This document shows, piece after piece, positions 42,261 to 44,759 of a stretch of 64,000 nucleotides of DNA. The notes under the pieces are model-generated. The model did no database searches. It worked only from the letters and a program-made list of their open reading frames with translations, and had not been told where the DNA came from. Positions within the stretch are counted from its first letter, which is position 1, and every line of letters begins with the position of its first letter. The stretch comes from an uncultured delta proteobacterium. Its GTDB lineage: Bacteria > Desulfobacterota > Binatia > UBA9968. The stretch is from the NCBI GenBank assembly GCA_963727625.1, contig CAVSHR010000005.1, forward strand, positions 320,001 through 384,000. The letters are read 5' to 3'. Position numbers and translations under genes: made by a program.

Positions 42261-42289
42261 TTGACATGACAAACCTTCGCAGATACCTT
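42261..42289 (+). promoter_or_regulatory. Sigma70-like promoter of the amidase-actin operon
   Basis: TTGACA-N17-TACCTT. Confidence 0.5.
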
Positions 42290-42332: not shown

Positions 42333-43331
42333 ATGGCTAGTACACAAGAAACCAAGGCTGAGATCTTACGCGCTGTGGTCCAGGATAACATCAATGTGAT
42401 CCATGGCGTAAAAGCGACGAGAGTCCAACCCCGCAAGAGCAGGACTCGGATCTGGCTATGGGGCGGCTTGCTCACTGCAGGAACGGCCTATTTCACCCTA
42501 GCTATGGCCGTCATTCCAAAAATAAACACGCCGACTCCAAGCGTAAAACCTGCGCGAGTCTCGACAGCGAGCGCCGGCAATTTTTCGGACACGGATCTTC
42601 TCCTTGCATCTCCCCGGCCGATCGATCGTAAAGCGATTCCGCTTGCGATCAGGACTGTCGTTATCGATGCCGGCCACGGTGGCGAACCGGGGACGGCGGC
42701 AGAATCCGGAATTACCGAGAAAGAAATCACTCTGGATCTGGCGCTGCGCTTGCGTCGCCACTTGAAACAAGCCCCGTTTAAAGTGTTATTAACCCGCGAC
42801 ACGGATCGTCGGCTGCCACTCGACAAGCGCGTGGCCTTCGCCAACCAAAATAAGGCGGATCTCTTTGTATCGATTCACTTGAATTGGATGGAACCGCACA
42901 GCATTCGCGGCGTCGAGACTTATTACGTCGGCCCAACCGATGACCCTTCCGTACTCAAGTTAGCCAGCCGGGAAAATAAAGAATCAGGCTATTCGCTTTC
43001 GGATTATAAGAAAATTCTTGAAAAAATTTACGTTGACACGCGCCGTCATGAATCTCACATTCTGGCGAAAACCGTTCAATCCCAATTGTTCCGGGCGCTC
43101 AAAGAAAACAATCCTGACTTGGAAAATCGCGGCGTCAAAACGGCGCCGTTTGTGGTTTTGATCGGCACACAAATGCCGGCAATCTTGATCGAAGTCGCCT
43201 GCCTCTCCAACCCGGAAGAAGTACAGTTGTTGACAAAAGAGGAGTATCGGGAAAGTATCGCCGTGGCTCTGGCAAGGGGCATACGTAGCTACGCAAACAC
43301 ATTTAATATGGCTGATAGGAAAGGCAGTTAA
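42333..43331 (+). CDS. N-acetylmuramoyl-L-alanine amidase (Amidase_3) with N-terminal TM/signal anchor
   Basis: VVIDAGHGG, TEKEITL, ADLFVSIH, PAILIEV zinc/catalytic residues; hydrophobic IWLWGGLLTAGTAYFTLAMAVI preceded by basic residues. Confidence 0.9.
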   Translation: MASTQETKAEILRAVVQDNINVIHGVKATRVQPRKSRTRIWLWGGLLTAGTAYFTLAMAVIPKINTPTPSVKPARVSTASAGNFSDTDLLLASPRPIDRKAIPLAIRTVVIDAGHGGEPGTAAESGITEKEITLDLALRLRRHLKQAPFKVLLTRDTDRRLPLDKRVAFANQNKADLFVSIHLNWMEPHSIRGVETYYVGPTDDPSVLKLASRENKESGYSLSDYKKILEKIYVDTRRHESHILAKTVQSQLFRALKENNPDLENRGVKTAPFVVLIGTQMPAILIEVACLSNPEEVQLLTKEEYRESIAVALARGIRSYANTFNMADRKGS

Positions 43332-43334
43332 TCG

Positions 43335-44366
43335 ATGGACGAAGCAAACGATACCCTCTGTGTTGGGATCGATCTAGGCACCTCTCGCAGCTCCATTTCG
43401 GCATCCAATGGCGAGCGCCACGTCGTGGATAGTTACGTCGGCTGGCCAGTGGACATGGTGGCGCGCAAATTGGTGAAAAAATCCGTGCTCATTGGCCGCG
43501 AAGCTCTGGATAACCGCCCCATGCTGGACCTGCGCCGGCCGCTCGAACGGGGAATAATGAAGGAGGGTTCCGAGAGGGATCAAGAGGCCGTTCAGGAACT
43601 CGTGCGTCATTTGATTTCCTTGGTCGGTATCAAGCAGAAGGGAAAAAACAAAGCAAAGGTGCGCGCTGTAGTCGGCGTTCCGGCAGAGGCCTTTCGTGTC
43701 AGTCGCCAGAACCTGCGCAACACCATCGACGGGATTGCTGAAAGTGTAATGATGGTCTCGGAGCCGTTCGCCGTCGCCTATGGACTTGAAGCGTTGCTGC
43801 ATTCCCTGGTCATCGACGTCGGCGCCGGGACTGCTGATTTTTGCGTGATGCAGGGCCGCTATCCTACCGAAGAGGATCAAAAGACCCTGCCTAACGCGGG
43901 CGACTCGATCGACGAGCAATTGATGAAATTGATTCGAGAACGCCATCCTGACGCTCAGTTCTCGATCCATATGCTGCGCGAATGGAAGGAAAGTCGGAGC
44001 TTTGTCGGCGAGCCCAAGGATCGAGTCATGGTCAGCGTGCCCATCAAGGGGAAAATGACTGAAATCGATATCACCCAGGAAATGCGGACGGCTTGCGAGA
44101 GTATTCTTCCACCGCTGTGCGAAACCATGACCGCGTTACTCATGAAAGTCGACCCCGAGTATCAGGATAAAGTGCGCGACAACGTTATCCTCGCGGGCGG
44201 GACGTCGCTCATTTCCGGACTGCCGGAGGCGATCGCCAACGCGTTAAAAGATTTAGGCGGCGGACGAGCAACGGTGGTCAATGATCCAGTATTTGCCGGG
44301 TCGGACGGCGGCCTCGCCATTGCCCGCGATGCTTCGAGCTCGGACTGGGACAAACTGTCCCTTTAA
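43335..44366 (+). CDS. mamK: MamK-like actin ATPase
   Basis: GIDLGTS, S.VGWP.D, L.RPL..G...E.SERD.E, VVGVPA, VSEPF.V.YGL, DVGAGT.D.C...G..P..EDQ..L..AG..IDE, PEYQ..V..NVILAGG, C-terminal W..L; colinear with Magnetospirillum MamK as I recall it rather than MreB. Confidence 0.8.
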   Translation: MDEANDTLCVGIDLGTSRSSISASNGERHVVDSYVGWPVDMVARKLVKKSVLIGREALDNRPMLDLRRPLERGIMKEGSERDQEAVQELVRHLISLVGIKQKGKNKAKVRAVVGVPAEAFRVSRQNLRNTIDGIAESVMMVSEPFAVAYGLEALLHSLVIDVGAGTADFCVMQGRYPTEEDQKTLPNAGDSIDEQLMKLIRERHPDAQFSIHMLREWKESRSFVGEPKDRVMVSVPIKGKMTEIDITQEMRTACESILPPLCETMTALLMKVDPEYQDKVRDNVILAGGTSLISGLPEAIANALKDLGGGRATVVNDPVFAGSDGGLAIARDASSSDWDKLSL

Positions 44367-44459: not shown

Positions 44460-44759
44460 ATGAGCGATTGGATTTCCGACGTTCTGCTGTTTTCTGCCGG
44501 TATTGCGGGCGGGGTGTTGATTATGACCCTCATCCCGGTGCTGCGCGCGGATAAACGGCGTCGCACCGAGCTCGTCGCCGCGCGCTCGCGCATCCTCGCC
44601 GACATTAAGGACAAACACGAAGAGGAAATTCTCGAACAGGCCTTCCGAACCACCGAGGCCATTCGCGGCGAACTGGACCATTCGTTACAAACCTTGCGAA
44701 AAACGGTTACAACCGTACTGACGCCGCTGAGCAATCAAGAAATCAATGGCCGCCAATAA
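44460..44759 (+). CDS. Small single-pass membrane protein with helical tail
   Basis: N-terminal hydrophobic VLLFSAGIAGGVLIMTLIPVL, then RADKRRR and an amphipathic helix. Confidence 0.55.
   Translation: MSDWISDVLLFSAGIAGGVLIMTLIPVLRADKRRRTELVAARSRILADIKDKHEEEILEQAFRTTEAIRGELDHSLQTLRKTVTTVLTPLSNQEINGRQ

Follow-up and report, generated by a model that had tools for sequence, protein, structure and literature searches.

A MamK-like actin gene linked to a membrane-anchored wall amidase gene in an uncultured Binatia bacterium

Few bacterial actins have a known job (MreB, FtsA, the ParM-type proteins and MamK), and the way in which wall hydrolases are directed from within the cell is still an unsolved question. 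Here we describe a locus that bears on both points: a gene for a membrane-anchored Amidase_3 protein, followed directly by a gene for a MamK-like actin, in 64,000 nucleotides (nt) of an uncultured delta proteobacterium (Desulfobacterota; Binatia; UBA9968; assembly GCA_963727625.1, contig CAVSHR010000005.1, G000:C5:320001-384000 in our numbering). This whole stretch is called the window; its source genome comprises 6.6 Mb in 15 contigs and is 98.45% complete. The pair is probably a two-gene module that connects the cytoskeleton to the cell wall, with a filament setting where or when the amidase cuts and with no role in magnetosomes.

Closest described systems

In FtsA-FtsN and MreB-RodZ, an actin-family protein holds the cytoplasmic N-terminal tail of a bitopic protein of the wall machinery. 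The partner there is a regulator of wall synthesis and is not itself known as a hydrolase, unlike the window amidase. ParMRC segregates plasmids; the window pair, in contrast, has no DNA-binding partner or centromere. The position that our model (see below) gives to the amidase tail on the actin is presumably the ParR site on ParM, an equivalence drawn from position in the fold.

MamK of Magnetospirillum (5ljw, 5ljv and 5jyg) has the same fold and nucleotide-binding motifs as the window actin. Unlike MamK, however, the window actin has a wall amidase and not magnetosome proteins as its fixed partner, and it stands in a separate clade, below the family cut-off. MamK-like actins in non-magnetotactic bacteria are already established (PMC11929497). 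One of them is BeeR (8r2n) of Verrucomicrobiota, which is related to MamK and assembles into three-stranded tubes; its function is unknown, and its hallmark is an N-terminal extension of 30-50 residues (PMC11929497). The window's host resembles the BeeR carriers in being a non-magnetotactic soil bacterium with a MamK-like actin, but the window actin belongs to another clade, scores 211 bits on the BeeR model (NF053558, against a cut-off of 530) and lacks such an extension (its phosphate-1 motif begins at residue 11); no amidase partner of BeeR is described in that paper up to its Methods (PMC11929497).

A polymer gene clustered with that of a membrane-anchored wall hydrolase is known for the bactofilin BacA and the bitopic M23 peptidase LmdC of Hyphomonas neptunium and Rhodospirillum rubrum, where the hydrolase is recruited via a conserved cytoplasmic motif (PMC10945521). 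The same adjacency is found for the actin-amidase pair. The differences are an actin-family ATPase instead of a bactofilin, Amidase_3 instead of M23, a helical instead of a beta-hairpin motif, and other host lineages (compare PMC10945521). A full-text literature search, which covered main texts, returned no description of the pair itself.

Linkage and family of the two proteins

The pair and the parts of the amidase are as follows:

42333..43331, + strand: bitopic N-acetylmuramoyl-L-alanine amidase of 332 residues (by Pfam Amidase_3, solved relatives and fold search)
42342..42401, + strand: cytoplasmic N-terminal helix of the amidase, residues 4-23 (TQETKAEILRAVVQDNINVI), candidate actin-binding motif (by conservation, AlphaFold2 and complex model)
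42441..42506, + strand: transmembrane helix (residues 37-58) of the amidase, with a basic stretch before it (by AlphaFold2 helix and hydrophobic segment)
42654..43310, + strand: predicted periplasmic Amidase_3 catalytic domain, residues 108-326, including an insert (by alignment to AmiA/AmiB and invariant residues)
43335..44366, + strand: MamK-like actin-family ATPase of 343 residues, member of an amidase-linked clade (by NCBIfam, PDB, fold search and tree)

The amidase stop codon (TAA, 43329-43331) is followed by tcg and then by the actin ATG at 43335, a spacing of 3 nt that the initial annotation had read correctly and from which it had implied one operon. Judged by this arrangement, translation of the actin gene is coupled to that of the amidase gene.

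Comparison across genomes speaks for a single unit. For a first wider sample one genome per species was scanned with a 7-row alignment as query, giving at least 575 relatives; the best 80 of these were used (actins 62-85% identical). Their carriers belong to Binatia, Rokubacteria/Methylomirabilota and Acidobacteriota (among others Thermoanaerobaculia and Holophagae), with a single genome from Syntrophobacteraceae. In the 76 of these 80 loci that can be tested, drawn from four or more phyla, an amidase gene of the same orientation always immediately precedes the actin gene; in the remaining 4 the actin is at a contig start. Gaps between the two genes, in this sample and the next, range from -20 to +144 nt; most are 3-6 nt or overlaps of 4 nt. 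A second sample, composed of 29 of the 30 Acidobacteriota matches plus one genome of the window's phylum (three loci duplicate the first sample), has the amidase upstream in 30 out of 30 loci, even beside actins of 47-50% identity. Within the genus the actin is present in 20 of 24 other species genomes, among them the unpublished G005, and with the source genome included the amidase is upstream in 21 of 21 loci (one of them cut by a contig end, one degraded). The survey of neighbourhoods proposed in the initial annotation thus finds the adjacency conserved: across more than 100 genomes the actin always adjoins the amidase where this can be tested. Loci of other MamK-like clades have the amidase in 0 of 10 cases. 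Two near-complete genomes of the genus that are without the actin (99% and 92% complete) are also without the tail-bearing amidase, and only a paralogue of 36-39% identity is kept. By this pattern of adjacency, the amidase and actin genes behave like a single unit.

Within the phylum of the window the pair is rare: of 251 genomes sampled there, 2 have it, that of the window counted. In poorly known soil lineages the module is common and reaches 30 of 401 evenly drawn species genomes in Acidobacteriota.

Two loci show damage of different kinds. In L029 (G017:C43:368499-372269) in-frame TGA codons and frame shifts occur in both genes of the pair; as the G017 assembly is 80% complete in 50 contigs, either a decay of both genes together or indel errors in the assembly may be the cause. 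In L030 (G007:C4:5629-9039) the amidase is intact and the actin is cut to its first ~132-138 residues, continuing into what is left of the small gene behind it, which looks like an internal deletion.

The actin carries GIDLGTS (residues 11-17), VSEPF (141-145), DVGAGT (161-166) and LAGG (286-289), the motifs that had been noted as intact; D13, G15, T16, E143, P144, F145, D161, G163-T166, G288 and G289 are invariant in 42 orthologues. Pfam labels the protein only generically (MreB_Mbl and Actin). The first NCBIfam match is MamK (NF040964) with 374.7 bits, under the curated cut-off of 400, and three orthologues from other phyla reach 368-382 bits on this model, while two members of a sister subclade pass the cut-off (424 and 442 bits). 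MreB models lie far below their cut-offs (NF010539 65.9 bits against 293, TIGR00904 55.4 bits against 366). Among solved structures, a HMMER search places three MamK entries first (5ljw with an E-value of 1.8e-74, residues 3-341 to 7-341), followed by BeeR (6e-41) and then by a far weaker MreB match (1.9e-07); the full-length alignment with MamK, including the MamK-type segments that the initial annotation had named, is thereby borne out. The AlphaFold2 model has a predicted local distance difference test score (pLDDT) of 80.4, and the fold search again ranks MamK (template modelling score (TM) 0.80-0.86, 36-37% identity) above BeeR and BeeR above MreB. By these sequence comparisons the actin is MamK-like and not MreB-like. 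As it scores under the NCBI cut-off and groups apart from crystallised MamK, the label "MamK-like" is correct and "a MamK" is not.

To place the actin in its family, we searched 1.84 billion cluster representatives (183 clusters at E <= 1e-30) and built a maximum-likelihood tree of 93 rows (LG+G4; bootstrap not fully settled). The rows comprise 68 full-length representatives (long ones trimmed to the actin domain), the window actin, 22 locus-derived actins and, as outgroup, the two MreB-type proteins of the source genome itself. In this tree the window actin belongs to its own clade of 18 rows among the MamK-like actins (support 100/100). Two further, separate clades are that of P0146 (16 rows, support 100/98; P0146 has 463 bits against PDB MamK) and that of BeeR (6 rows, support 100/99; member P0256 has 304 bits against PDB BeeR). 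The linkage to the amidase requires one change on the tree and is confined to the single clade with 100/100 support. The earlier suggestion that this role is possibly ancestral to the family does not stand: the backbone between the MamK-like clades has bootstraps of 27-76, and which role came first can therefore not be told. Phyla are interleaved on the actin tree, which indicates that the amidase-actin pair has moved horizontally as a unit.

The amidase matches Pfam Amidase_3 (PF01520) with 172.8 bits (E-value 8.7e-51, cut-off 27). Its closest solved relatives are AmiB of Bartonella (3ne8, 2.3e-30) and AmiA of E. coli (8c2o, 3.7e-26), and a fold search has AmiA first (TM 0.83-0.84 on the target), with AmiA, AmiC and AmiB as the top structural matches. 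Scores on the NCBIfam equivalog models are below cut-off (AmiA 108 against 400, AmiC 84 against 700, AmiB 75 against 532). In the AlphaFold2 model (pLDDT 81.1) a helix (residues 4-23), a membrane helix (37-58), a linker (59-107) and the catalytic domain (108-326) follow each other; the linker of ~50 residues is of low confidence and disordered in the model. The protein is not of the soluble-export type: it has an N-terminal membrane anchor with a predicted cytoplasmic tail of ~36 residues. H115, E129, H182 and E287 are invariant in the 42 orthologues. We take these to be zinc-ligand and catalytic positions, from their roles in AmiB and CwlV, and their invariance indicates that the enzyme is under selection. 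The alignment to 3ne8 and 8c2o is unbroken through residues 200-260 and spans an insert, shared with AmiA and AmiB, that is presumably their autoinhibitory helix region; model confidence is lower here (pLDDT 67-72).

Mean column identity is lower in the amidase as a whole than in the actin (44% against 76%). The cytoplasmic tail of the amidase is better conserved than its transmembrane helix or linker (frequency of the top residue 0.51, against 0.38 and 0.36). The consensus of the tail reads K-R-R-L-L-R-x-A-V-x-E-N followed by basic residues, with TKAEILRAVVQDNINVIHG as the form in the window; K8 is nearly invariant and N19 invariant in the 42 orthologues. The sister subclade, with actins 47-53% identical, has a variant motif (ILRGIYEEN or ILREIYEQN). 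When the motif pattern was searched in six frames across 16 loci around MamK-like genes, chosen as non-amidase loci, it occurred only in two that are amidase-linked, and in this small sample there is thus no sign that it marks partners of related actins elsewhere. A second, longer Amidase_3 gene is present elsewhere in the source genome, so that the window amidase is to be regarded as an extra, specialised copy.

The modelled contact and its possible meaning

We modelled the actin together with residues 1-40 of the amidase, each from a 42-row alignment and unpaired, in the manner that the initial annotation had proposed for the amidase N-terminus. The interaction prediction score from aligned errors (ipSAE) is 0.81 (0.82, 0.79 and 0.81 in the separate runs) against 0.00 for the best of three controls; the runs have at least 89% of contacts in common, and the pLDDT of the partner is at least 65. 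Predicted contacts join tail residues 4-23, and no residue of the tail outside them, to actin residues 124-128, 139-141, 149-155, 174-176 and 329-343. From actin anatomy we take this surface to be the cleft between subdomains Ia and IIa together with the C-terminal helix. Interface residues specific to the clade are R128, L155, R175, Y176, A333 and D337. The complex model supports binding of the tail to the actin, short of showing it.

A mechanism can be proposed on this basis. The actin would polymerise into filaments beneath the membrane. Docked in its Ia-IIa subdomain cleft, the tail helix of the amidase would also lie against the C-terminal helix of the actin. Such a filament would then fix where, or when, the periplasmic amidase removes peptide stems from glycan strands, probably serving daughter-cell separation or local wall remodelling, and the module would add to the ordinary MreB, FtsA and second Amidase_3 of the genome. 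The idea of a filament-guided wall hydrolase outside magnetosomes had been raised from the window alone; given the conserved gene order, the motif in the tail and a model of the complex that stands up to its controls, we consider the module reading well supported. The pairing in non-magnetic soil bacteria suggests an undescribed internal filament that controls the site of wall cutting. As the clade of the actin has a fixed partner and a candidate binding motif of 20 residues, a direct test is possible.

A number of points weigh against the module reading or limit the support for it. The ipSAE mark is reached by 58 of 80 solved complexes and by 2 of 110 mismatched pairs, a calibration that is only roughly valid here because self-made unpaired alignments were used. 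For other actins, structures with a helix in the cleft are already known (ParM with ParR, actin with WH2 peptides), so that part of the score of 0.81 may reflect the predictor's memory of them. Actin interface residues are more conserved within the clade than the rest (0.83 against 0.75) and less shared with other clades (0.30 against 0.38), which speaks for the contact, but this specificity signal is modest and comes without a significance test. If the tail takes up the cleft through which subunits contact each other, it might bind only monomers or filament ends and not filament sides. By inspection of hydropathy, no membrane-binding segment of its own is evident in the actin. The pairwise identities of actin and amidase correlate (r = 0.82 over 861 pairs), in favour of joint evolution, but the value is inflated by common ancestry. 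All carriers seen are uncultured and known from metagenome-assembled genomes; that the actin forms filaments, that the tail binds it and that the amidase is active are inferences.

It is unlikely, but worth weighing, that the amidase acts mainly as a rivet in membrane and wall for a filament that places cytoplasmic cargo, an inclusion or the chromosome, with wall cutting secondary. MamK itself positions a cytoplasmic organelle (PMC11929497), an actin more conserved than its amidase would fit many cytoplasmic contacts, and the actin has no evident membrane-binding segment of its own. Yet the invariant zinc-ligand and catalytic positions point to selection on the enzyme, no cargo gene is conserved beside the pair (neighbours past the amidase vary by lineage), and the third gene that recurs in Acidobacteriota resembles wall-binding SPOR proteins.

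Just as improbable is a reading in which ATP-dependent assembly of the actin on the tail switches the amidase on or off through the membrane helix, like FtsEX-EnvC does with AmiA and AmiB. It draws on the catalytic domain, which aligns with AmiB and AmiA through the presumed autoinhibitory insert, on the reduced confidence of that insert in the model, and on the top fold matches, all of them regulated division amidases; the disordered linker of ~50 residues, however, makes mechanical signalling hard to picture.

Somewhat less probable again is a more far-reaching form of the module, in which the tail in its ParR-like cleft would hold only the growing filament end and a cytomotive actin would push or drag the periplasmic amidase through the membrane: an ATP-driven wall-cutting track, independent of wall synthesis, that has spread among soil phyla as a two-gene cassette.

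That the pair is a phage or plasmid cassette of an endolysin with a partition actin is very improbable. Amidase_3 is a common endolysin domain (a PHROG endolysin family matches with 117 bits), there is a weak match of the actin to a phage partition family (40 bits, PHROGs), and the patchy spread and the interleaved phyla could be read in this way. Against this, the flanking genes are ordinary metabolic ones that recur in part of the genus loci, the window is without tRNA, Rfam match or meaningful PADLOC match, and, unlike a secreted lysin, the amidase belongs to the AmiA/B/C type and has a cytoplasmic tail. Phage and defence readings were dropped in general, as PHROGs gave generic domain matches only and PADLOC nothing useful.

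Close to refuted, finally, is the view that the actin is a remnant mamK or serves a magnetosome cluster elsewhere in the genome: MamK is indeed its best family and structure match, but its clade is separate from crystallised MamK, the amidase is always adjacent, and a genome-wide search (made without a magnetotactic genome as positive control) gave no match for MamI and only scores below cut-off for MamP (best 32.7 bits against 300), MamQ (75.9 against 250) and MamO (84.2 against 800). These latter scores reflect generic PDZ, LemA and protease similarity and are likewise seen in ordinary control genomes.

Gene starts, neighbouring genes and related actins

Further features of the region are listed below:

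42261..42289, + strand: promoter-like letters ttgaca (42261-42266), a 17-nt spacer and tacctt (42284-42289), a weak candidate read in the sequence
43317-43324, + strand: Shine-Dalgarno-like AGGAAAGG, read in the sequence, within the 3' end of the amidase gene and 10 nt before the actin ATG
44460..44759, + strand: small membrane protein of 99 residues (by hydropathy), starting 93 nt after the actin

The amidase frame opens upstream of the ATG at 42333, with TTG 42318 as an alternative start. Because the residue aligned to the ATG is Met in 43 of 68 orthologues, 42333 is the likelier start. The promoter proposed in front of the amidase is present as letters, but as a promoter it is weak: its -10 element agrees with TATAAT at 3 of 6 positions only, and a consensus promoter scan passed it over, reporting a single site for the region, which lies on the opposite strand, against 2.2 expected by chance. 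The GC content of the amidase gene is slightly lower than around it (0.51-0.53 against 0.55-0.61), a difference too small to use.

Around the pair, only the amidase is conserved beside the actin across all lineages, whereas further neighbours vary by lineage; this was read by hand, as automated single-linkage clustering of open reading frames was muddied by overlapping frames in GC-rich DNA. Metabolic genes (UbiD, Usp, ornithine cyclodeaminase and an ABC substrate-binding protein) flank the pair in 9 or more of the 21 genus loci. The claim that the window is free of mam and mre genes stands for the nine genes scanned around the pair (38.6-48.3 kb of the window), among which none was found; the scan was limited to these.

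The 99-residue protein has a transmembrane helix at residues 8-28 and, after it, the basic stretch KRRR; its charged cytoplasmic tail is probably helical. It has nothing over curated cut-off in Pfam or NCBIfam, and no match in PHROGs or PADLOC. Of the 21 genus loci, 18 have its gene 3' of the actin, as do 4 of the best 80 wider loci, and the protein could be a second, lineage-specific partner of the filament. In part of the Acidobacteriota, a bitopic protein is encoded after the actin (16 of 80 loci in the first sample and 3 of 30 in the second). Pfam finds a C-terminal SPOR domain in two downstream proteins (400-530 residues), which the bitopic products of third genes elsewhere resemble. SPOR domains attach to glycan strands denuded by amidases, and a third gene of this type fits an active, wall-directed module. 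In one Rokubacteria genome (L040:9063-9851) the actin is followed by a phosphodiester glycosidase of the NAGPA family with a signal-like N-terminus, an envelope-directed neighbour.

The source genome also encodes a canonical MreB on contig C6 (500 bits, Pfam MreB_Mbl), a second, divergent MreB-like gene (G000:C2:58888-59829, a frame of 338 residues with 205 bits on MreB_Mbl) and FtsA (464 bits), so that the window actin is an extra actin of this genome.

Genes over the NCBI MamK cut-off were found in 15 genomes of a 401-genome sample from the phylum of the Syntrophobacteraceae carrier. In four genomes MamK-family genes stand in tandem, with at least one over the cut-off (G263:C12:35725-38342, G321:C1:2982895-2985700, G372:C23:213271-216029 and G361:C23:17869-19949). 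For G263 and G321, ~35 kb around these genes contain YgiQ radical SAM proteins, transporters, methyltransferases and small proteins without a family, and no Mam proteins. Because both examined loci with over-cut-off genes sit among ordinary genes, the MamK family as defined by NCBI is wider than magnetosomes, and an annotation as "MamK family" does not imply them; this has consequences for studies that rely on mamK to mark magnetotactic bacteria.

A MamK-family frame of 338-340 residues (409-435 bits) occurs in seven small genomes of 2.1-2.7 Mb (G174, G062, G104, G296, G141, G206 and G050). Three actins of this set that were placed on the tree (L119-L123 set) are near-identical, form a long branch of their own and are without an adjacent amidase. 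A tight MamK-like clade of 14 rows (P0135, P0136, P0139, P0142-P0145, P0148, P0151-P0154, P0164 and P0167; Shimodaira-Hasegawa-like approximate likelihood ratio test (SH-aLRT) 99) is marked by N-terminal extensions of ~190 to 900 residues, which in the eight members scanned (523-1232 residues) have no significant Pfam match. Lastly, genomes of ANME-2 (anaerobic methanotrophic archaea) and Methanosarcinales contain MamK-like actins (P0155 cluster) that are ~39% identical to that of the window and are annotated as rod shape-determining protein.

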